Origin: Candidatus Woesearchaeota archaeon
GTDB lineage: Archaea > Nanobdellota > Nanobdellia > Pacearchaeales > GW2011-AR1
Direction of reading: 5' to 3'
DNA length: 37,527 nucleotides
Assembly (NCBI GenBank): GCA_964408905.1
Contig: CAYPBD010000001.1
Location: 1 to 37,527 of the forward strand
Shown: in pieces, positions 9,046 through 23,606 of the stretch
Layout: each line of letters starts with the position of its first letter
Numbering within the stretch: the stretch's first letter is position 1
Program-made: the position numbers and the translations under genes
Notes under the pieces: model-generated
Told to the model about the DNA's origin: nothing
The model's input: only the letters and a program-made list of their open reading frames with translations
Databases searched by the model: none

Positions 9046-10242
9046 TTATCTATTAAAACTATCTAACAATCTAAAGAATTCTTTTTTATCAAAAGTCTTA
9101 TCAACTTCATTTAGTCCAATATGTTCTGCCATTTTCCAAAATGCTTCTGGTTTATATCCTCTTTTTTTCAATGCCTGTATTGTAAGCAATTTTTCATCAT
9201 CCCAGCCAGAATATTTCCCTTCTTTAATTCCCTTAGTAATTTCACTGGCAGATAATTTCATTCCTTTAAGATGAATCTTTCCAAGAAAAGCACACCATGG
9301 ATATTTCTTTCCCAAAACCTTGAACATCATTTTCTGCCTCTCAGCATTATCCCGATGCTCTTTTGCCCGAATAATATGAGTCATTTTTTCTTCAATATCA
9401 TCAGTTGTAACAGCCAAATTCATCAATGGCCAAACACGATATTTTTTTCCCTGACGAGGATGTGAAGTTTCATTAATTCTTGCCAAAGGAAAATCTCTCA
9501 TCGCAGGATTCTTATGGCTCATGCTCGACTTAAATCTCAAAACAGCTTCGCCAACAGCAAATCCTTTTTTATCAAACATTTTCTTCCATCTTTCTATATT
9601 TTCTTTAACACTTAATTTTCTGCAAGGACAATTCTTTTTTTCTTTAACATATTCTCTAAACTTATCACCAGAACAGGTGCAAATATATGCAAATCCTTTC
9701 TTAATCAATTTCTCTGCATACTTATAATACAATTCCATTCTGTCTGACTGAATAACAATCTTTGCATTTCCATTAAACAGCCACTTTGAATCATCTTTCA
9801 GCAATTTGTAAGCAGGTTTGTAAATATTATTTGGATTTGTGTCCTCAATTCTTACAATAAATTTTCCTCCATATTTCTTTACATAATCAAAAGATAAACA
9901 TGCAGTAATAGCATGACCAATATGCATTGCACCAGAAGCAGAAGGAGCAAATCTCATCACCACACTAGATTTCTTTACATCAGGAAGTTCAGGCAAACCC
10001 TCACGAATTTTTCTTTCACTAACAACTTCCTGTAATTTTTTAAATTCTTTTTTCTGTTCTTCAACTGATAAATTATTAATTCCTAAAATTATTTCAGAAA
10101 TTTTTTTTGAATATTTTTTCGCCTCGCTCCTTTTCAAACCCTCATTAAACAAAGCAGATATAACTGCACCAAGATGCGCTTTTCCATTATAATGAATAGC
10201 ATTTTTCAAAACATATGCTTTGATTTTTTTATCTGAAATCAT
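9046..10242 (-). CDS. gltX: glutamate--tRNA ligase, archaeal/eukaryal type, catalytic core only (no C-terminal anticodon-binding domain)
   Basis: MRFAPSASGAMHIGHA carries the HIGH motif at residues 107-110. Other matches are RIEDTNP, FPLARI, WPLMNLAVTTDD and THIIRAKEH, with LKGMKLSAS as the KMSKS equivalent. GWDDEKLLTIQALKKRGYKPEAFWKMAEHIGL matches GWDDPRMPTISGLRRRGYT..IREFCKRIGV of GlnRS/GluRS. The ORF stops at residue 398. Confidence 0.8.
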   Translation of the reverse strand: MISDKKIKAYVLKNAIHYNGKAHLGAVISALFNEGLKRSEAKKYSKKISEIILGINNLSVEEQKKEFKKLQEVVSERKIREGLPELPDVKKSSVVMRFAPSASGAMHIGHAITACLSFDYVKKYGGKFIVRIEDTNPNNIYKPAYKLLKDDSKWLFNGNAKIVIQSDRMELYYKYAEKLIKKGFAYICTCSGDKFREYVKEKKNCPCRKLSVKENIERWKKMFDKKGFAVGEAVLRFKSSMSHKNPAMRDFPLARINETSHPRQGKKYRVWPLMNLAVTTDDIEEKMTHIIRAKEHRDNAERQKMMFKVLGKKYPWCAFLGKIHLKGMKLSASEITKGIKEGKYSGWDDEKLLTIQALKKRGYKPEAFWKMAEHIGLNEVDKTFDKKEFFRLLDSFNR

Positions 10243-10772: not shown

Positions 10773-11075
10773 TTACCTCGTCTTCTTTTCTAAAAGTTCT
10801 ACTCTTTGTTGCAAATGATAAATTTGGTTTGAAATTTCTTCCATCTTATTAGTTAAATCTCTTAATCTTTTTGCAAGTTTTTTCTTTCTATCCTCAGAAA
10901 TATTTGGATTATCTTGAGATGAATTGCTTGAAGCTAAATTTCCTAAAAAACTAAAAGCATTTTGTGATGAATCTTCCTGCGAAGCATTTTCCTGAGCAAT
11001 TTTTTTCTGCTTTTTTCTATAATGTTCAGTTAAATCAAGCACCCTGTCTTTTTTTCCAAATTTAAAGAATTTCAT
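10773..11075 (-). CDS. hypothetical coiled-coil protein
   Basis: Track ORF 10773..11090; the start is more likely M6 (MKFFKFGKKDRV). It has a low-complexity Ser/Asn/Gln middle and a C-terminal heptad-like helix KKLAKRLRDLTNKMEEISNQIYHLQQRVELLEKK. Confidence 0.45.
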   Translation of the reverse strand: MKFFKFGKKDRVLDLTEHYRKKQKKIAQENASQEDSSQNAFSFLGNLASSNSSQDNPNISEDRKKKLAKRLRDLTNKMEEISNQIYHLQQRVELLEKKTR

Positions 11076-11158
11076 AAAATAAATAAGCATATACTATTTT
11101 TAAATTTAGTCATATTAGAAGATTTTTTAAAACAATCATTCCTTAATTTCAATATAAA

Positions 11159-12628
11159 ATGGTGGCAACAATTCAACAAATTATTGGGAAAGTTAGTCCT
11201 TTGCTTTATGCAAAAAATGGAAAAGAATTATTAAAAAAATATGGTTCTATAGATAAAATTCCAGCCGATGAAGTTGAACCTCAAGATTTAGGAGAACATA
11301 ATCTTGTCTATGATTCCTCGTCAGAAACTTTAGAGCCAATTTATTTTTTTATTCTTGATTTAATGAATGAATTTGGATTTGCTCCAGAAAAACTTGTTGA
11401 TTCTTTTATTTCTTCTCCAGGTTCAGGACATTTTTCAGAACTTGGGCAACGAGCATCAGTAATGCAACAACAAGGAGCTAAAATCTTAGCTGATGTAAAC
11501 ACTGTTCTAAGAAGTGTTCTAAATATCATTTATGATTTAAAAGAATTCAGAATGCGTTTACAATATTATAATGATTTAAAATCAAAAGATAAAAAAAATG
11601 CAGCAATACTTGCTCTTAAACAAATCTGGATGGATAAAGTAGATGTAATAAAAGGCAATTCAAGCATTAAAGCAATGGCTTTGGGTCAGATGGGTTTTCA
11701 GACATTAATTGATGCATTCTTGTCTGTAAATAATGTAGCGGATGTTAATAAAATTGATTTAAATGAAAGAGTTAAACGAATCTTGATTCCAAGAATTCAG
11801 GAATTTAATATTTGGTTAGAGCAATCTGGAAAAGAATTACAAAAAAGATATGAAATTGAAAAAACATATTTAAGAAGTCAGGTAAATAGTTTAAAACTTT
11901 ATTCACGATGGGCAAAGCCATATCTAAAAGCAGCCCAGCAACTTGAAACATCACAAATTGGAGGAGCTCGAAATCCCGCTTTAGTGAAGACATTTAATAC
12001 AATTCTCCTTGAATTAACTTTATTTGGAAAAAAAGCAGTTAAGGTAAAAGAATCTGCTCTTGAAGGAAAATTACCTTCAGATTTTACAAAAGAAAGTTTT
12101 CTAAAAACATTAAAAAGAAAATATTATTCCTGTGTATTAGTTGATTTTATGTTTAGAGGAATTCCACAAAAAACATCTGCTTACCAGCACCATTATGTTT
12201 TTGGAGGAAAGGCAGAAGTAACATTTAGGGCATATGCATTAAATGAAGATGAAATCAAAAAGATTAATGATGAACTTAAAGAATCAGATGTTGAAGATGT
12301 TCTTAAATTAATCGAGGGAACAACAACAGAAAGTTTAAAACAATTGCAAAAAGATATAAACTTTTTTTTAGAAGAAAAAACAGAAGAGAAAAAAGAAAAA
12401 CCTAAAGAAAATTATGCTAAAAAAATAAAAGAATTTTTCCCTAATATTAAAAAAGATTTAAAAGAAACATTTTTTGGTAAAACTAAATCAAAAAAAGAAG
12501 AGATAAAACTTGATAATTTTATTGAAAAAGAACATCTAAGACCTTTAGCAGAAGAAACCGCAACAGAAACTATCTTAAAATTATTTAATGTTTATAAAAA
12601 AGCTCATGGTATGCCAAGTTATGTTTAA
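11159..12628 (+). CDS. hypothetical protein (helical core, beta-rich region, Lys/Glu-rich tail); no family recognised
   Basis: 489-aa ORF with no Walker or other catalytic motifs seen. It is the first gene of a tightly spaced plus-strand block (gaps of 14, 30 and 1 nt). Confidence 0.65.
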   Translation: MVATIQQIIGKVSPLLYAKNGKELLKKYGSIDKIPADEVEPQDLGEHNLVYDSSSETLEPIYFFILDLMNEFGFAPEKLVDSFISSPGSGHFSELGQRASVMQQQGAKILADVNTVLRSVLNIIYDLKEFRMRLQYYNDLKSKDKKNAAILALKQIWMDKVDVIKGNSSIKAMALGQMGFQTLIDAFLSVNNVADVNKIDLNERVKRILIPRIQEFNIWLEQSGKELQKRYEIEKTYLRSQVNSLKLYSRWAKPYLKAAQQLETSQIGGARNPALVKTFNTILLELTLFGKKAVKVKESALEGKLPSDFTKESFLKTLKRKYYSCVLVDFMFRGIPQKTSAYQHHYVFGGKAEVTFRAYALNEDEIKKINDELKESDVEDVLKLIEGTTTESLKQLQKDINFFLEEKTEEKKEKPKENYAKKIKEFFPNIKKDLKETFFGKTKSKKEEIKLDNFIEKEHLRPLAEETATETILKLFNVYKKAHGMPSYV

Positions 12629-12642
12629 TTTTTAATTTTGAA

Positions 12643-13206
12643 ATGAAAGATAAAAAAAATTTAGATGAAAAAGAAGAATTAGAAGAAGATATTGAAGAAT
12701 CAAAATTAAAAAAAGTTGCAGAAGAAATAAATAATGAAAATCCTGAAGATATAGAGAAAATTGAAGACAATAATTTTCATGAATTTTTTGAAACTTCAAT
12801 TAAAACCCCAACAATTCAGAAAAGTTCTCCTTCTTTGGAAAAAATTAATATTTCTCAGGAAATTCCAGTTAGATTAGAACAAGGATTTACAGATTCTCAA
12901 TTTACAGAAAAAGAAAGTAAAGGAAGTCAATTCAAATATAATTTTACAAATCAGAAAGAAGAACCTAAATATCAAACTTCAGAAGAACAGACTTTTGCAC
13001 CACAAAGAACAAATATAGAATCCCTTGGAAAAACAGAGTTTCCTCAAAGACAAGAAGCAGGATTTATACATGCTCAAGAAAATAATCCAACACAAATTTA
13101 TGAAAAATATGTTTCTCCGTCCTCACAAGAAATAGAAGAATTGGGCAAGAAAGAAAATCTTTTTGAAAAAAAAGAAATAAAATATAAACCAAGCACTAAC
13201 CATTAA
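12643..13206 (+). CDS. acidic low-complexity (probably disordered) protein
   Basis: 187 aa, rich in E, K, Q, S and T, with no predicted hydrophobic core (MKDKKNLDEKEELEEDIEESK...). It sits between two larger co-oriented genes. Confidence 0.5.
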   Translation: MKDKKNLDEKEELEEDIEESKLKKVAEEINNENPEDIEKIEDNNFHEFFETSIKTPTIQKSSPSLEKINISQEIPVRLEQGFTDSQFTEKESKGSQFKYNFTNQKEEPKYQTSEEQTFAPQRTNIESLGKTEFPQRQEAGFIHAQENNPTQIYEKYVSPSSQEIEELGKKENLFEKKEIKYKPSTNH

Positions 13207-13236: not shown

Positions 13237-15042
13237 ATGGGAGGTTATACAACTAATATTTATCAGGGAGGATATTCTACATTAGACCCTAATAAAAGTT
13301 ATGGTTCTGTTTTTTCCGGATATAATGTATCTTCAGGAAGTTTAGGATTAACAACAGATCCCCGAACTGCAAATATTATAAAAGATGTTTCTGACAAACT
13401 TTCATCAGGAGCAAAACACATTGAACTTGCATTGGTTAGTCCTGAAATATTTGATTCAATACCAAAACAACATTTAAAGGAAGTTAAAAGACATGCAAAA
13501 TTATTAAATGTTGATGTTTCTGTGCACGGACCTGTTGTAGATTCAGCAGGAATTACTCAGCAAGGATTTAGTGAATTAAACAGAGAAGCTTCTGAAAGAA
13601 AAATAGCTAATGTAATTGAAAGAAGTCATGAAATTAATCCAGAAGGAAATGTTCCTGTTGTTTTTCACTCATCAGAAGGTATTCCAGGAACAGAATGGAA
13701 AGAAATCCCCTGGGAAGAAAAAGGAATTAAAGGAAAAGCAAAACAATTAATTGCAGTAGATAGAGAATCAGGAAAAATGATTCCTCTTCGTGAAGAATTA
13801 AAATATTATCCAGGAAAAGAATTTAAAGAAAAAGGAGTTCCTTATTCTCCCGAAGAAAATTTAAGAATTGCAAATGATACAGAATGGGACAACAAAATAT
13901 CTCAATTATTTTTTAACAAAGAAAGAGCAGATGAAATATTAACTCAAAATGAAGTTCAAATAAAACATTTAATGGACTATCTTGAAGAGCAAAAAAAGAA
14001 AAAACAGAAGCCTGTTTTAACTCCTGTTCAGGAAGAAGCTTGGAATAAATTTCAGGATGCCCAAAATTATATACATGAAGTTCATAAAACAGCAAATGGA
14101 ATATTTAGCAGAGCATATGAATATGGAACTGAAAAACAGCAAAAAGAACTAAGAAAAATTAATGAAGAATATAAAGAAGATTTAAATAAATATGGAGATA
14201 CTATTTCTGGCCAGTCAAGAGCAATGCATAAACTTCTAAGTCAGTTGCAAGACCCAAAAAATGAACTTGCACCTCAAATGTTTGTTCCAATTGATAAATT
14301 TGCAGTAGATCAATCTTCAAAAACATTTGGAAATGCTGCTTTTAATGCTTTTAATAAATTTAAAGATCCAAATAAAACACCAATGATTGTCATTGAAAAT
14401 CCTCCAGTAGGTCATGCAATAAGCACAGGTGAGGATTTGAAAAATCTTGTAATAAAATCAAGAGAACAATTTGTTAAAAAAGCTGTAGAAGAAAAAAGGA
14501 TGAGTGAAAGTGAAGCAAAAAAAGTTGCAGAAAAATTAATTGGAGCAACCTGGGATGTAGGCCATATAAATATGTTGAGAAAACAGGGCTTTGGAAAAAA
14601 AGAAATTATTAAAGAAACAGAAAAAATAGCACCTTTTGTAAAACATGTTCATTTATCAGATAATTTTGGAATGGAGCATACAGAACTTCCAATGCAAATG
14701 GGAAATGTTCCGTTTAAAGAGATTATGGGAAAATTAGGCAAAGAAGGATTTGAAGCAAAAAAAATTATTGAAGCAGGTCAATGGTGGCAACACTTTAAAA
14801 CTTCTCCATTTCAAATAACAGCTGAAGGACTTGGTGCTCCTGTATATTCAACTGGAGCAGGCCCTTATTGGAATCAGGTTATAGGATTATATCAAGGGTA
14901 TTATGGAGGATTAGCAGGACAATGGCTTCCTCAAATGAATTATGAAACATTTGGTGCAGGTTTTGCCCAATTACCAGTTGAACTCGGAGGACAACGACAA
15001 GGAGCAGGTGGAAGCAGAATGTCCGGAAGACCAATGGAATAA
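13237..15042 (+). CDS. xylose isomerase-like TIM-barrel (AP endonuclease 2 / EndoIV-like fold) protein with large helical insertion and Gly/Tyr/Gln-rich termini
   Basis: The ordered motifs are typical of the fold: HIELAL, DVSVHGP, VVFHSSEG, MIVIENPP, GATWDVGH, VKHVHLSDN, KKIIEAG. About 230 aa (residues 150-381, nt 13690-14380) separate the FHSSEG and IENPP strands. The N-terminus is MGGYTTNIYQGGYST...GYNVSSGSLG and the C-terminus is GPYWNQVIGLYQGYYGGLAGQW...GGQRQGAGGS. Confidence 0.7.
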   Translation: MGGYTTNIYQGGYSTLDPNKSYGSVFSGYNVSSGSLGLTTDPRTANIIKDVSDKLSSGAKHIELALVSPEIFDSIPKQHLKEVKRHAKLLNVDVSVHGPVVDSAGITQQGFSELNREASERKIANVIERSHEINPEGNVPVVFHSSEGIPGTEWKEIPWEEKGIKGKAKQLIAVDRESGKMIPLREELKYYPGKEFKEKGVPYSPEENLRIANDTEWDNKISQLFFNKERADEILTQNEVQIKHLMDYLEEQKKKKQKPVLTPVQEEAWNKFQDAQNYIHEVHKTANGIFSRAYEYGTEKQQKELRKINEEYKEDLNKYGDTISGQSRAMHKLLSQLQDPKNELAPQMFVPIDKFAVDQSSKTFGNAAFNAFNKFKDPNKTPMIVIENPPVGHAISTGEDLKNLVIKSREQFVKKAVEEKRMSESEAKKVAEKLIGATWDVGHINMLRKQGFGKKEIIKETEKIAPFVKHVHLSDNFGMEHTELPMQMGNVPFKEIMGKLGKEGFEAKKIIEAGQWWQHFKTSPFQITAEGLGAPVYSTGAGPYWNQVIGLYQGYYGGLAGQWLPQMNYETFGAGFAQLPVELGGQRQGAGGSRMSGRPME

Positions 15043-15043
15043 A

Positions 15044-16768
15044 ATGAGTTCTATCAACAAATTTATAATAAAAAAACTAAAAGAAAATAAAAAAGAAGTA
15101 ATTACAATTTCATTAATTGCCACAATTGGTTCAGTTCTATCTGTCGCTACTCCTTACATTTATGGAAAATTATTTGACCTTGCAATAATTCCAAACACTG
15201 CTTTAACATTTCTTTTTTCATTAATTTTCATTTGGTTAGCTGCAAGTTTAATTTCAAACTATGCATCAAACAAAGCAGGTTACCGTGGAGGAATTCTTGG
15301 AGTAAAAATTGCCTGGACAGAGGAAGCAGATGCATACGGGCATTTCCTAACTCTTCCAGTAGCATTTCATAAAAATAGAAAAACAGGAGAAATCCTCAAT
15401 AAACTCTCAAGAGGTTCATGGCACATCGAAAGTTTAATTTCAAACTTATCAGGATTGTTCCCGCAAGCAATCGTTCTAATATTTTCAATAATAATCATTT
15501 TCATAATTCAATGGCAATTATCTATAATTCTGACAATATCTTTTATTGTCTATGTTCTCATAACAATAAAATCTTCAAAAGCAGTTGTTGAAGCACAGGA
15601 AAAAGTAAATAAAATAGCAAATAAACAATACGGAAAAGTCTACGATAAATTATACAATCCATTCTTAGTGAAAAACTTTGCAATGGAAAAAATAGAGAAA
15701 AAAAGAATATTAAATGACTTATTAAAAGTAATTCCTGTAGTAAAAAATTCCTCAAAAAAATATAACAAAGTATCACTTTATCAGGGAATTGTTTACACAT
15801 TAAGTTTTGTTGTTCTCTTAAGTTGTGCTATCTTTTTTCTGCGAAAAGGAAACATCACACAAGGTCAGTTCATAATGTTCTTTGGTTATATCAATTTAGT
15901 ATTTAGTCCATTATATATGATTACTGAATTTTACAAATCACTCAAAAGATCATCTGTTGCAATAAAAAGAATAACAAAATTCAAATCATTAATTCCTGAA
16001 TCAATGCAACATGGAGATAAAATTTTAGACCATGCCAAAGGAGAAATCAAATTCTCTGATGTTACATTTGGATATAAAAAAGACAAGCTTGTCTTGAACA
16101 AAATAAATCTCAAAATAAATGCAGGACAAAGTGTAGCATTAGTCGGACAAAGCGGAGTAGGAAAATCAACTCTTTCTGAATTAATAATGGGATATTACAA
16201 ACCTCAAAAAGGCAAAATATTCTTTGATGGAACTGAACTTTCAAGATTAGACTTGCAATGGCTAAGAGAACAAATTGCAATAGTTCCCCAAGATTTGAGT
16301 ATTTTAAATGACAAACTAATTAATAATATTAAATATGCAAAACCCAAAGCAACTTACAAAGAAGTAACAGAAGCAGCAAAAGCAGCAGGAGCACATACTT
16401 TCATTATGAAACTTCCAAAGAAATATAATACTCTCGTAGGTGAGAGAGGAATAAAACTCTCAATGGGGCAAAAACAAAGAATTGCACTAACAATGGCTTT
16501 TCTAAAAAATCCAAAAATCTTAATTTTGGACGAACCAACTTCTGCTCTTGATGCCGAGTCAGAAAGAATAGTTCAGGAAGGAATAAAAAAATTAATCAAA
16601 AACAGGACAACAATAATTATAGCACACAGATTCTCAACAGTAAAACATGCAGATAAAATAATTGTCCTAGATAAAGGAAAAATAATTGAAAAAGGAAACC
16701 ACCAGGAACTTATGAAAAACAAAGGAAAATATTATCATCTATACAATTTGCAAATAGGATTAGAATAA
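15044..16768 (+). CDS. ABC exporter, fused permease/ATPase (MsbA/ABCB-like half transporter)
   Basis: Track ORF starts at 14942, but its first 34 codons overlap the preceding gene. ATG 15044 (MSSINKFIIKK) lies 1 nt after that gene's stop. There are six TM helices, Walker A GQSGVGKST, signature LSMGQKQR (the second Gly is replaced by Met), Walker B ILILDEPTSALD and H-loop IIIAHR. Confidence 0.85.
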   Translation: MSSINKFIIKKLKENKKEVITISLIATIGSVLSVATPYIYGKLFDLAIIPNTALTFLFSLIFIWLAASLISNYASNKAGYRGGILGVKIAWTEEADAYGHFLTLPVAFHKNRKTGEILNKLSRGSWHIESLISNLSGLFPQAIVLIFSIIIIFIIQWQLSIILTISFIVYVLITIKSSKAVVEAQEKVNKIANKQYGKVYDKLYNPFLVKNFAMEKIEKKRILNDLLKVIPVVKNSSKKYNKVSLYQGIVYTLSFVVLLSCAIFFLRKGNITQGQFIMFFGYINLVFSPLYMITEFYKSLKRSSVAIKRITKFKSLIPESMQHGDKILDHAKGEIKFSDVTFGYKKDKLVLNKINLKINAGQSVALVGQSGVGKSTLSELIMGYYKPQKGKIFFDGTELSRLDLQWLREQIAIVPQDLSILNDKLINNIKYAKPKATYKEVTEAAKAAGAHTFIMKLPKKYNTLVGERGIKLSMGQKQRIALTMAFLKNPKILILDEPTSALDAESERIVQEGIKKLIKNRTTIIIAHRFSTVKHADKIIVLDKGKIIEKGNHQELMKNKGKYYHLYNLQIGLE

Positions 16769-16780
16769 ATAAAAATAAAA

Positions 16781-17245
16781 TTATCTCCTTAATTTTTTTT
16801 CTTGTTTAAGTTCTTTTGCAACTTCTGCTCTTGAAATTTTTGCAGATTTTTTCTTTGTTGAAACTTTCTTAGAACGCGATTTATTTTTTGTAACTATCTT
16901 CTTCTTTGCAGTTCTCAACATTACACTTGAAACCTTAGCAACAAAAACTTTAGGAGATTGATTTCCAACAAACTCTCTAATTCTCATTCCTAACTTATTT
17001 GATTTAGAAATTGCTTCTCTTATATTCTTATTAATTCTGCTGAACTCTTTATTAGATTTCTTAACAGAAGATTTCATTGTATCTTCAGAAATTCTCCCAC
17101 TCTTAAATCTAGAACGTTCTTTATCAAACTCATCTATCACTGCCTGCTTCTCTTCCTGTCGCGTCCGAATAAGTTCCCCAAGAGCATTCAGTTCCTTAAC
17201 CATCTTAGCAAAAGAAACTTCATTCATCATCTTAGCTTTAACCAT
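16781..17245 (-). CDS. hypothetical basic protein with Lys-rich C-terminal tail
   Basis: 154-aa ORF preceded by a strong SD (reverse strand AAAGGAGGTGATAAAATG at 17243-17260). The tail is TAKKKIVTKNKSRSKKVSTKKKSAKISR. Confidence 0.6.
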   Translation of the reverse strand: MVKAKMMNEVSFAKMVKELNALGELIRTRQEEKQAVIDEFDKERSRFKSGRISEDTMKSSVKKSNKEFSRINKNIREAISKSNKLGMRIREFVGNQSPKVFVAKVSSVMLRTAKKKIVTKNKSRSKKVSTKKKSAKISRAEVAKELKQEKKLRR

Positions 17246-17354: not shown

Positions 17355-18212
17355 ATGGTGAATAAAAAAACTTCAGCAAAAAAAAGAAAATCTGTTAAAA
17401 AGAAATCTAAAATTGATAAAAAAAATATTCCAAGTTTGAAACTTAAAACTGCCCATGATATTGCAATGGACTTTGCAGATAAGGTTTATGAAAAATTTAA
17501 CAAAATGATTAAATCAATTGTATTATTTGGTTCAACTGCAAAAAAAACAAGAGCAGTAGGTTCTGACATAGATATTATAATTATAATAGATGATGCTTCA
17601 GTAAAATGGGATCAGGAATTAATTGCATGGTACAGAGAAGAACTTGATAAAATCTTAAGAGAAAATCCTTATCAAAGTGAACTTCATATTAATACAATAA
17701 AATTAAGTACATGGTGGCAGGATTTAATGAAAGGAGACCCTGTTGTTTTAAATGTTATAAGAAATGGTGAATCAATGATTGATTTTGGTGGTTTCTTTGA
17801 ACCCTTGAAATTCTTATTAGTTCAGGGGAAAATAAATGCAACACCCGAGGCAGTTTACAATTGTCTTCAAAGAGCTCCAATGCATATTGCAAGAAGCAAA
17901 GCTTCTGAATTAAATACAATCGAAGGTTTATATTGGGCAATGGTCGATTCTGCTCACGCTGCTTTAATTGCCTCAAAAGTTTTTCCTCCTTCTCCAGAAC
18001 ACATTCCAATATTCTTAAAAGAAAAATTTGTTAATAAGAAAAGATTAAAAATAAAATATGTTATCTGGTTTAGAGATTTGTTAATGCTTCACAAAAAAAT
18101 TGCCCATGGTGAAATAAAAGATTTGAAAGGTGTGGAAATTGATGACTGGCAGGCAAAAACAGAAGAATTTTTAGAGGTAATAGCACGATTAGTTAATGAA
18201 ATAATTAGTTAA
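17355..18212 (+). CDS. Pol-beta superfamily nucleotidyltransferase domain protein (short paralog)
   Basis: SIVLFGSTAKKTRAVGSDIDIIIIIDD carries the G[SG]...D.D NTase motif. A Lys-rich N-terminus and a helical C-terminal domain are present. It is clearly homologous to 22056..23606 (see findings). Confidence 0.75.
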   Translation: MVNKKTSAKKRKSVKKKSKIDKKNIPSLKLKTAHDIAMDFADKVYEKFNKMIKSIVLFGSTAKKTRAVGSDIDIIIIIDDASVKWDQELIAWYREELDKILRENPYQSELHINTIKLSTWWQDLMKGDPVVLNVIRNGESMIDFGGFFEPLKFLLVQGKINATPEAVYNCLQRAPMHIARSKASELNTIEGLYWAMVDSAHAALIASKVFPPSPEHIPIFLKEKFVNKKRLKIKYVIWFRDLLMLHKKIAHGEIKDLKGVEIDDWQAKTEEFLEVIARLVNEIIS

Positions 18213-22055: not shown

Positions 22056-23606
22056 TTATTTCTCATTTTTCTTTTGAACTAATTCACATCTCTGATTGTA
22101 TTCAATCAAATCATTAATTAAAATTGAAGCATTTTTTCTTGCCTCATCAACTTTATGAGAATTTAATTTTCCTTTCTTAAAATCAGCTCTTGCACTTACA
22201 ATATTTTTCAAGATTCTCAAATGTTGTGGAGCAAACTTTCCTTTTTTTACAAAATTTTTCTCAAACTCAGAAATAATCTTATCTTTTGATTTATTGCCAA
22301 TCATTGTTTTTAAAATACTAAAAGTATCTTTGTAAATTTGCTCTATTGTCTTTTCCTGAGCTCGTTTCTCTATTTCCTTTCTAAGTTCTTTTAACCTCTT
22401 CAAATAATCCTGAGTATCCTTAAGCAACTTATCAATTTCTTTTCCTGAAATTTCCTTAATTTTTTCATGTTCATAATCTCTCCAAATATTTACTATTTTT
22501 TCCATAAAATCAATATATTTTTTCTCAATCATTTTTTTATTATAAAATTCTCTCTTAAAATCAGAAACTAATTCTTTCTTAGCATTTGGAGGAGGTAATC
22601 CATTAAGCATCAAAAGTGCCTGTGCAGGAGTTGTAATACCCCAGAAAATATTTGTAAAAACATCAGACAAAAGAATTTTTTTACTTCTTGAAACAACCTT
22701 ATCTCCCATTGACATAAACATATCAATTGCTTCTGGAGAAGGCTTAAGCTTACCCATTTTCAATAAAGTTTTCCAAGGCATAAATGTTCCTCTGTCATAA
22801 AGAGGAACTCCATCTCTAATAAAAGTAAAAATAACAGGATGTGCATCTTTAACAGCTTCCCAAAAATCAGTCAATAAATAAATCTGTGGCTCAAGTTTGT
22901 TCTTCACACCAGCCAAAGAAGAAGCTTCAGCAACATATTGGTAAATTATTCCTCTTAATCTTTCTTTTAATTCAAGCCTCGGCATTCTTTTAACATCAGT
23001 ATCATTAATAACAACAAAAACATCAACATCAGAATCTTTAGAAGCCTCTCCCCTAACTAAACTACCTCCAATAACATAACTAACAACATATCTCTCAAAT
23101 TTTTGTAAGACTAATGACTTATGAATCTCAGCAACTCTCAATGCACCCAAAATTCCTTTATCATAAAGTGGAAAAGACATTGCAATTGCACTCACTAATT
23201 CAAACTTGCTGTCCAAACAATTTCCCCATACATCAACAGGAGTTTTAATCTGTATCCAAATTTTTTGCTTTCCAATTTGTTTAATAATTTCCTGTTTCAT
23301 CTTTGGAATTTCTTTAACCTTTTCTTCAGGAACAATAACATAAAGATGAACATATTTTTCAGTCTCTTTTGGAACTTCTTCTTCATCAATAAATTTCTTA
23401 ACAGATACCGGCGGTAAAATACTTACTGATTGAGTATAAGAATATTTTTTCACAATAAAAGATTTCAACTTTTCAAGTTCTTTTTTTGTTTTCTCCATAT
23501 CTTTTTTAATTTTATCAGAACTTTCAGGAATTACAGATTTTTTAGTAGAATATTTTCTGTCAATATTCATTTCAGGAATATCTTGATTTTTGTTGTCTTT
23601 ATTCAT
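22056..23606 (-). CDS. Pol-beta superfamily nucleotidyltransferase domain protein (long paralog with N- and C-terminal extensions)
   Basis: SYVIGGSLVRGEASKDSDVDVFVVINDTD is the NTase motif. The downstream blocks HPVIFTFIRDGVPLYDRGTFMPWKTLLKMGKLKPSPEAI align with DPVVLNVIRNGESMIDFGGFFEPLKFLLVQGKINATPEAV of 17355..18212. The start overlaps the GT2 stop (23603-23606). Confidence 0.75.
   Translation of the reverse strand: MNKDNKNQDIPEMNIDRKYSTKKSVIPESSDKIKKDMEKTKKELEKLKSFIVKKYSYTQSVSILPPVSVKKFIDEEEVPKETEKYVHLYVIVPEEKVKEIPKMKQEIIKQIGKQKIWIQIKTPVDVWGNCLDSKFELVSAIAMSFPLYDKGILGALRVAEIHKSLVLQKFERYVVSYVIGGSLVRGEASKDSDVDVFVVINDTDVKRMPRLELKERLRGIIYQYVAEASSLAGVKNKLEPQIYLLTDFWEAVKDAHPVIFTFIRDGVPLYDRGTFMPWKTLLKMGKLKPSPEAIDMFMSMGDKVVSRSKKILLSDVFTNIFWGITTPAQALLMLNGLPPPNAKKELVSDFKREFYNKKMIEKKYIDFMEKIVNIWRDYEHEKIKEISGKEIDKLLKDTQDYLKRLKELRKEIEKRAQEKTIEQIYKDTFSILKTMIGNKSKDKIISEFEKNFVKKGKFAPQHLRILKNIVSARADFKKGKLNSHKVDEARKNASILINDLIEYNQRCELVQKKNEK

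Follow-up and report, generated by a model that had tools for sequence, protein, structure and literature searches.

The window analyzed here, i.e., the whole stretch of 37,527 nt (positions 1 to 37,527 of contig CAYPBD010000001.1, assembly GCA_964408905.1, Candidatus Woesearchaeota archaeon, order Pacearchaeales), raises the question of what joins a long helical protein without known relatives, an acidic protein and an enzyme with sticky tails in a single gene block. A reading made from the sequence alone, hereafter the sequence-only reading, had described four co-oriented genes on the plus strand with gaps of 14, 30 and 1 nt, and had suggested that they form an operon, possibly of a lineage-specific system. 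The four are protein A (11159-12628, 489 aa), protein B (12643-13206, 187 aa), protein C (13237-15042, 601 aa) and an MsbA-like ATP-binding cassette (ABC) half-transporter (15044-16768, 574 aa). These coordinates were re-read from the sequence and borne out. Comparison with related genomes showed that the conserved block consists of A, a variable B, C and a nucleotidyltransferase (NTase), with the NTase and not the exporter as its fourth gene.

Composition and distribution of the conserved block

Gene order was compared in two sets of loci. First, open reading frames (ORFs) were called at 20 loci from different families of the class Nanoarchaeia and at 8 deep-branching loci, and were labeled by phmmer/hmmsearch. 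Second, a further sample comprised 80 Pacearchaeales-type loci, in 54 of which a C match was seen. The order A-B-C, with C proteins of 590-735 aa, was found in about 15 of the 20 diverse families, and the junctions there often overlapped or were very short (-7 to +9 nt). All eight deep-branching families showed the order A-[B or nothing]-C-NTase; here, the A-B, B-C, A-C and C-NTase junctions mostly ranged from -11 to +51 nt, and the gap between C and the NTase from -1 to 39 nt, mostly less than 20 nt. The NTase gene also directly follows C in many Woesearchaeota-type and Pacearchaeales-type loci. Where the gene after C was visible in the Pacearchaeales-type loci, it was the NTase (13 loci) and never an ABC gene; in the close relative L001, C and the start of the NTase are 54 nt apart. 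The four families of the sequence-only reading did not recur together: an ABC gene followed C in 0 of the 80 Pacearchaeales-type loci and in 0 of the 28 class-level loci, and the exporter was rejected as a member of the module after these roughly 100 related loci.

In the window, the ABC gene (ABC domains matched; an alternative longer start at 14942 is open) and a basic coiled-coil ORF of 154 aa on the minus strand (16781-17245) form a lineage-specific local insertion (15044-17245), by which the NTase gene was pushed to 17355 (17355-18212, plus strand, 285 aa). The insertion looks recent. The proposed operon thus stood in part: A, B and C are a co-oriented unit that is kept far beyond the window's genome, whereas the exporter failed as the fourth gene. 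From gene order, A, (B), C and the NTase are predicted to be one ancient, translationally coupled operon of the class Nanoarchaeia. The module stands in conserved synteny with glutamyl-tRNA synthetase (GluRS), uL16 and eL33. The G+C content is about 28% throughout the window, and the base composition of the module equals that of its surroundings. ABC genes of related genomes were seen upstream of A on the other strand; the copy in the related locus L003 is split into pieces of 198 aa and 312 aa.

The occurrence of the genes was determined in a phylum sample of 200 genomes plus the window's own and in a more even class sample of 61 genomes, 43 of them of high quality. In the phylum sample, A was present in 199 of 201 genomes, nearly always as a single copy, and C was likewise present in 199 of 201. 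In the class sample, A was found in 58 of 61 genomes and the NTase orthologue in 59 of 61, each including all 43 high-quality genomes; C was found in about 59 of 61, as AP_endonuc_2 matches in frames of 500-700 aa. Assembly gaps may explain the absences of A and C, since C is cut off at the contig start in one of the two genomes of the phylum sample that lack A. The labels of the 80 GTDB loci were Pacearchaeota, Woesearchaeota and Nanoarchaeota/Nanoarchaeia, with one exception. This locus, L103 (DATJPO010000019.1), belongs to a metagenome-assembled genome labeled 'Candidatus Omnitrophota bacterium' and carries a full-length A copy that is 60% identical; it is almost certainly a mis-binned nanoarchaeal contig. 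Judged by the taxon-labeled matches, a restriction of the A family to Nanoarchaeia lineages is supported, which agrees with the proposal of a lineage-specific system.

The genome of Nanoarchaeum equitans Kin4-M (490,885 bp, single contig) retains A, C and the NTase, in unlinked positions. A corresponds to NEQ086 (497 aa; L036 8036-9529), located 7 nt upstream of FEN-1. C corresponds to NEQ209 (711 aa), located between prolyl-tRNA synthetase and uL13, in which the metal-ligand motif residues are kept as judged by eye. The NTase corresponds to NEQ362 (256 aa; arCOG01204, 'predicted nucleotidyltransferase'), located between uL2 and Alba. The 497-aa translation from L036 had no exact record in the protein collection, was not its own best hit in the homologue search and was assigned to NEQ086 via the proteome table, where the protein likewise has 497 aa; a residue difference between the records, or a candidate list truncated owing to its K/E-rich words, likely explains this mismatch.

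All three proteins were detected in the whole-cell proteome (Giannone et al. 2011, supplementary table; PMC3149612). In purified N. equitans, normalized spectral counts were 20.6 for NEQ086, 41.7 for NEQ209 and 41.4 for NEQ362, as compared to about 120 for FEN-1 and about 970 for L13P in the same proteome (PMC3149612). The three are thus genuine, expressed proteins, and their modest and similar abundance is enzyme-like rather than typical of a structural polymer. An arCOG was assigned to neither NEQ086 nor NEQ209 in the 2011 proteome table (PMC3149612). In the literature text that was searched, NEQ086, NEQ209 and NEQ362 were not mentioned; they are named only in the proteome supplement.

Properties of the encoded proteins

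Protein C matched Pfam AP_endonuc_2 (PF01261) with an E-value of 9e-11 (42.4 bits; cut-off 31.1), over the C-terminal half of the barrel only. Twelve of twelve aligned members of the C family matched PF01261, the best with an E-value of 3.9e-16. By these matches, C is assigned to the xylose-isomerase/endonuclease IV (EndoIV)-like superfamily of triosephosphate isomerase (TIM) barrels, as a member of what is called here the NEQ209 family. Among solved structures, MJ1311 of Methanocaldococcus jannaschii (PDB 3WQO) comes closest to C (E 7.6e-14 with the family profile). Eight residues, i.e., H97, H144, E387, D440, H443, H472, D475 and E512, were invariant in the 12 diverse C proteins, and an (E/D)-x-H at 480-481 was mostly conserved in the same alignment. 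The ligands of the trinuclear site of Escherichia coli Nfo follow in the order H, H, E, D, H, H, D, H, E. The register between C and EndoIV was taken from a weak hhalign alignment of the C-terminal half and from the HMMER alignment to MJ1311, and the metal-ligand motifs of C could be aligned with those of MJ1311 and of the short EndoIV-like protein from N. equitans. With this ordered ligand set, C is predicted to keep a complete multi-metal site of the EndoIV/MJ1311 type.

Between H144 and E387, the barrel of C is split by a charged helical insertion of about 240 aa. The barrel is flanked by tails that are conserved throughout the class, an N-terminal one (M.F...Y...MDR.Y) and a C-terminal one (...YFG...PP.F..G.Y.PS.DW.LWS..PME) ending in P-M/L-E. 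The Gly/Tyr tails noted before were confirmed by composition counts: the first 40 residues contain 8 Gly and 5 Tyr, and the last 72 contain 17 Gly and 6 Tyr as well as 7 Gln. This richness in Gly, Tyr and Gln is the Pacearchaeales version of the class-wide C tails. Neither C nor NEQ209 nor a Woesearchaeota-type C matched the Nfo models (TIGR00587/PRK01060) at E<=1e-3, and none of the NCBIfam Nfo, UvdE and epimerase models was reached by C. The Nfo models are matched, below the cut-off, by short proteins of the class with about 265 aa.

A role of C as the missing apurinic/apyrimidinic (AP) endonuclease was considered and ruled out, because a canonical EndoIV-like protein and/or exonuclease III (ExoIII) is encoded in most genomes, the window's family included. 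The short EndoIV-like gene was found in four of four sampled genomes of that family. In the window's own assembly (85% complete), only C was found, with neither a short EndoIV-like nor an ExoIII gene; this is probably an assembly gap.

The product of 17355-18212 (NEQ362 family, arCOG01204) matched the Pfam families NTP_transf_2 (PF01909; E 7.8e-9, 36.2 bits; cut-off 21) and Polbeta (E 2.3e-7). Its sequence contains the core motif GS...DIDIII and ends in a helical domain of about 180 aa, and it is predicted from these features to be a minimal nucleotidyltransferase of the Pol-beta superfamily. Its best NCBIfam match was MntA (24.9 bits as compared to a cut-off of 60; E 1.5e-5), and weak matches to the ANT(4')/ANT(9) aminoglycoside nucleotidyltransferases were obtained. 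A type VII toxin-antitoxin system of the MntA/HepT kind was rejected, as the MntA match is below the cut-off and no HEPN gene adjoins the NTase gene in the loci examined. The PADLOC entries PDC-S09 and PDC-M05A match the NTase domain only. One to two paralogues of the module NTase occur per genome, and most genomes carry longer ones. One type spans about 510-650 aa (516 aa in the window; 22056-23606), and in many deep-branching genomes (G201, G205, G208, G209, G210 and G183 loci) another type, of about 350-390 aa, is found downstream of the module at a distance of only 1-2 kb.

Protein A is not a chance ORF, since more than 2500 homologues were found in a word-indexed search and the best 120 of them were 61-82% identical over the full length, all unnamed or 'hypothetical'. 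A HMMER scan of 1.84 billion cluster representatives yielded 552 A clusters with proteins of about 420-600 aa and identities down to about 25%. When A and its neighbors were compared with L001 and L003, identities by BLAST were 71/63% for A, 72/67% for GluRS, 77/75% for uL16, 73/69% for the NTase and 50/46% for C. Against the same two genomes, A is conserved about as well as GluRS and nearly as well as uL16.

A had been described as having no placeable motif, and the searches agreed. In Pfam, no family was obtained for the window's A or for any of 36 diverse members (E<=0.01), and NCBIfam, PHROGs and PADLOC contained no match. Searches of the PDB sequences by phmmer and profile gave best E-values of 0.013-0.018, with unrelated coiled coils. 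No catalytic motif, transmembrane segment, signal peptide or lipobox was recognized in A. The Pfam matches to DUF5752 and Gon7 (E 0.02-0.04) were dismissed as noise, as they recurred in 0 of the 36 family members. An ESCRT-III/PspA/Vipp1 relationship is not supported, since Pfam searches gave neither a Snf7 nor a PspA_IM30 match, with thresholds of E<=0.01 for the 36 A members and E<=0.1 for the 105-aa protein encoded upstream of A.

A structural model of A was built with AlphaFold2 from 96 homologues (mean predicted local distance difference test score, pLDDT, of 88.1; predicted template modeling score of 0.73); an earlier, weaker model had been based on 34 close homologues (pLDDT 70). In the model, an alpha/beta base domain is formed by the N- and C-terminal segments of the chain, with five strands (46-53, 77-85, 282-293, 322-338 and 346-362). 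From it extends an antiparallel stalk of about 170 residues with two helices of 50-60 residues each (90-139 and 203-262) and a small helical cap (146-198) between them; from the helix lengths, the stalk is estimated to be 75-90 Å long. The two long stalk helices are the most conserved surfaces of A. Both the helical core and the beta-rich segment (YYSC...FRAYAL) of the sequence-only reading are present in this model. The Lys/Glu-rich stretch is real as well (about 406-450; low confidence in the model), whereas its description as a tail did not hold, since the stretch is a linker that is followed by a strongly conserved and confidently packed C-terminal helix (454-482; pLDDT >95).

Foldseek searches of the PDB with the pLDDT-88 model gave 0 matches at E<=1e-3 (best E 0.013). 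The top rows were generic helical hairpins with a query TM-score of 0.19 or less, among them EmrA, a soluble chemoreceptor, STAT and the dynein stalk. A BFVD fold search with the first model (pLDDT 70) likewise gave 0 matches at E<=1e-3. A START/TULIP-like lipid-binding fold was rejected, as the respective matches were noise of the low-confidence model and disappeared with the confident one. On present evidence, A founds an undescribed family, here called the NEQ086 family, with a new combination of folds. A is basic (isoelectric point, pI, of 8-9.5) in most lineages; B and C are acidic.

For protein B, the acidic character noted before was reproduced (pI 4.83, net charge -14, 19% Glu). It contains 22% hydrophobic residues and is fast-evolving; its orthologues in L001 and L003 are too divergent and fell below BLAST detection. 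Short motifs recur in 38 Pacearchaeales-type copies (EF..F, P.LE.I, E.KY and FE..E.KY), and the Woesearchaeota-type copies show an N-terminal helix, L..L.PEERIKRLKELEE and a C-terminal KY. In about 15 of the 20 diverse families, A and C are separated by an acidic ORF of 146-221 aa (pI 4.4-5.8); B is absent from this position in five of the eight deep-branching families. In three loci that lack it (L128, L129 and L130), a divergent acidic ORF of 111-179 aa (pI 4.4-5.5) was seen 62-76 nt upstream of A and could be a relocated B-like partner. None of A, B and C matched PHROGs or PADLOC.

Upstream of A, the minus strand encodes a small protein of 105 aa (10773-11090), an associate of the module found only in Pacearchaeales. 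Its true start is likely the Met five codons in (MKFFKFGKK...). Its N-terminus is hydrophobic/basic, and a disordered linker connects it to a coiled coil at the C-terminus; no family match was obtained for the protein. The gene was found in opposite orientation upstream of A in about 65 of the 80 Pacearchaeales-type loci and in L001 and L003, with identities of 55% and 46%, respectively. MIM1-like/ESCRT-type motifs in B and in the 105-aa protein were rejected, since by eye their register was off the consensus and profile support was missing. In Woesearchaeota-type lineages, the place of the 105-aa gene is taken by a YhbY/CRM RNA-binding gene, which lies co-directionally and directly upstream of A in about 10 of the 20 families. 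It encodes 74-103 aa (pI about 10) and lies about 25-250 nt upstream of A (L020, L025, L026, L028, L031, L033 and L035); further upstream, a Kef-type K+/H+ antiporter, an NAD(P)HX dehydratase or an NFACT-R protein is often found.

The 68-nt spacer between the divergent genes (11091-11158) contains back-to-back A/T-rich, TATA-like elements according to direct reading and a pattern scan. One of them, TTTTTAAA at 11124, lies about 27-35 nt ahead of the ATG of A. These elements may be considered putative promoters; in this DNA of 28% G+C, TATA-like words and runs of five or more T are equally frequent within and between ORFs. The GluRS gene near the module (9046-10242, minus strand) encodes a protein of only 390-401 aa in the window, L001, L003 and L032. 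This short form is conserved and apparently stops where the catalytic core gives way to the anticodon-binding domain.

Proposed function and rival explanations

Read jointly, the data suggest a complex of a metallo-phosphoesterase and an NTase that is scaffolded by A and acts on nucleic-acid ends, with a rough probability of 0.3-0.4. A, (B), C and the NTase would be subunits of a cytoplasmic multi-protein enzyme. C would be its catalytic core, a metal-dependent phosphoesterase, and the NTase would contribute nucleotidyl transfer as a second activity. A would be non-catalytic: its stalk may bundle with the long helices inserted in C and with B's N-terminal helix, and thereby build and position the complex. 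B may be an acidic, disordered adaptor or regulator that docks by short aromatic motifs and is dispensable in some lineages. As substrate, we infer nucleic-acid ends, i.e., 3'-blocked or damaged DNA or RNA termini that would be cleaned before nucleotides are added. The earlier descriptions of A as scaffold-like and of B as disordered would agree with this model.

Nucleic-acid ends are favored for five reasons. First, the three genes survive in N. equitans, an organism with almost no central, sugar, lipid or cofactor metabolism, and thus almost without small-molecule metabolism. Second, the site of C is EndoIV-like. Third, the partner of C is an NTase of the Pol-beta fold. Fourth, the neighboring genes encode YhbY, FEN-1, aminoacyl-tRNA synthetases, ribosomal proteins and Alba. 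Fifth, A is basic and B is acidic.

Several observations weigh against this reading. No OB, KH, HhH, zinc finger or other nucleic-acid-binding domain was recognized in A, B or C. The neighborhood hints from the scrambled genome of N. equitans are weak because translation genes make up a large share of it. By hhalign, the similarity between C and the short EndoIV-like protein of N. equitans was weak (probability 23%, E 9e-4), and the only NCBIfam matches of C were weak ones to fructoselysine 3-epimerase and not to Nfo. Canonical EndoIV-like proteins (about 260-290 aa) and/or ExoIII accompany C in most sampled genomes, N. equitans included. Moreover, B is not essential to the core, since it is missing at the A-C junction in five of eight deep lineages.

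Alternatively, the complex may act on small molecules, which is considered possible although unlikely. Then, C would be a sugar(-phosphate) isomerase or epimerase, or a phosphodiesterase acting on a host-derived metabolite, cofactor or lipid head group; the NTase would tag or activate the same compound in a KNTase/ANT-like manner, and A and B would be regulatory or oligomerizing. The fructoselysine 3-epimerase matches of C fit this explanation, as do the weak ANT(4')/ANT(9) matches of the NTase and the affiliation of MJ1311, an uncharacterized member of the sugar-isomerase-like superfamily. In addition, similarity to the cobamide phosphodiesterase CbiR was noted for the short EndoIV-like proteins of the class, and nanoarchaeal symbionts must remodel host-derived compounds. 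However, the three genes were kept in N. equitans despite its near-absent metabolism, and they are near-universal and single-copy in a class whose metabolism is very patchy. The invariance of H97 and H144, which are typical of a multi-metal site of the EndoIV type, also argues against a small-molecule isomerase or phosphodiesterase.

The very high conservation of the helix surfaces of A could also be explained if A was a self-assembling cytoskeletal or membrane-remodeling polymer that shapes the cell or the host contact site, with B, C and the NTase as accessories. The weak Foldseek likeness of A to BAR, dynein-stalk, SMC-arm and ClyA-type hairpins and the amphipathic N-terminus and coiled coil of the 105-aa protein point in this direction. 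Yet these fold matches were all insignificant (TM-score of 0.19 or less), A, B and C lack a membrane-binding segment, transmembrane helix and signal peptide, and the spectral counts of 20.6 for NEQ086 contrast with 120-970 for FEN-1 and ribosomal proteins. As the tight coupling to two enzymes would also remain unexplained, a polymer is judged improbable.

Somewhat more doubtful is a switch based on protein nucleotidylylation, in which an MntA-like NTase would transfer AMP or another nucleoside monophosphate to Tyr residues of B (KY motifs) or of the C tails, C would remove the modification and A would serve as regulated target or platform. It would account for the conserved short Tyr-containing motifs in B and in the C tails and for MntA as the best NCBIfam match of the NTase (E 1.5e-5), although the matches concerned stayed under the family cut-offs. 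The HEPN partner is absent, and the coupling of C and the NTase persists in several lineages without B. To our knowledge, there is no precedent for a de-AMPylase of the xylose-isomerase fold.

The ABC gene of the window starts 1 nt past the stop codon of C, so that co-transcription is very probable in this genome, and ABC half-transporter genes recur upstream and on the opposite strand near some Pacearchaeales-type loci. An exporter-coupled system, with a product that is made or modified by the scaffold, the disordered protein and the enzyme and then secreted by the adjacent exporter, would fit this arrangement. It is effectively excluded by the comparative data, since ABC genes follow C in none of the 80 and 28 loci, the NTase takes that place at 54 nt in the close relative, the A, C and NTase genes persist in N. 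equitans while lacking such a linkage, and A, B and C have no signal peptides. Least probable of all, a mobile, viral or defense-island origin of the module, to which the orphan proteins adjoining an NTase with a domain found in candidate defense systems (PDC-S09, PDC-M05A) might point, is effectively refuted by the phyletic pattern of single-copy, near-universal genes syntenic with GluRS, uL16 and eL33, by the lack of PHROG or PADLOC matches for A, B and C and of a BFVD fold match for A, and by a base composition like that of the surroundings.

Returning to the nucleic-acid-end complex, a more far-reaching version is proposed tentatively and with less confidence. Here, A, C and the NTase, joined by B as an adaptor that varies between lineages, would be an undescribed essential housekeeping machine of the Nanoarchaeia for healing and tailing of RNA or DNA ends, in which A has a fold without known relative, and which would replace or supplement a function that other archaea perform differently. 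That the module is essential is very likely, because it is single-copy, kept in the 0.49-Mb genome of N. equitans and conserved like a tRNA synthetase. If the proposed function is true, a possible role would be quality control or repair of nucleic acids in general, or of the 3'-ends of tRNA or rRNA, in cells that are unable to synthesize nucleotides and have to import or save them.

Significance and comparison with known systems

Few archaea are as abundant and as poorly understood as the Nanoarchaeia (Pacearchaeota, Woesearchaeota and Nanoarchaeota). With 0.5-1.5 Mb, their genomes encode hardly more than information processing, and solving the function of the module would fill one of the largest 'conserved unknown' gaps in the minimal gene set of these symbionts. 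In addition, the module would be useful as a clean lineage marker, and A would offer structural biology a new fold. The module is testable, as co-cultures of N. equitans with Ignicoccus and of Nanobdella exist and the proteins are soluble and of ordinary size. New in this analysis are the counterparts of the module genes in N. equitans together with the detection of their products by proteomics, the presence of canonical AP endonucleases alongside C, the variable nature of B and the ABC insertion.

Three kinds of known systems resemble parts of the module. EmrA, the STAT core, chemoreceptors and dynein stalks share with A the succession of strands, a long antiparallel hairpin and strands. The likeness is one of shape only: sequence similarity between these proteins and A is absent, the base domain of A has no match among them, and A is cytoplasmic.

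The NTases of the KNTase/ANT(4') and MntA-like groups (arCOG01204) share the GS...DxD core and the helical C-terminal domain with the module NTase. Unlike these, the module NTase has no HEPN toxin partner and no resistance context; its orthologue is present in 59 of 61 genomes, is conserved like GluRS and is coupled to a TIM-barrel gene.

MJ1311 and, presumably, EndoIV show the same order of motifs as C, i.e., ..HAP.., ..VVH(T/S)GE.., ..EN.., ..D.GH.., ..HVHL.DN.., ..(D/E)xHL..G.GN.. and ..E.G... They are compact barrels of about 280-290 aa, whereas C proteins have 500-850 aa. In contrast to MJ1311 and EndoIV, C has 130-350 aa of helical sequence inserted between the His of the fourth strand and the next Glu as well as conserved aromatic N- and C-terminal tails ending in PME/PLE, and it is always partnered with protein A.

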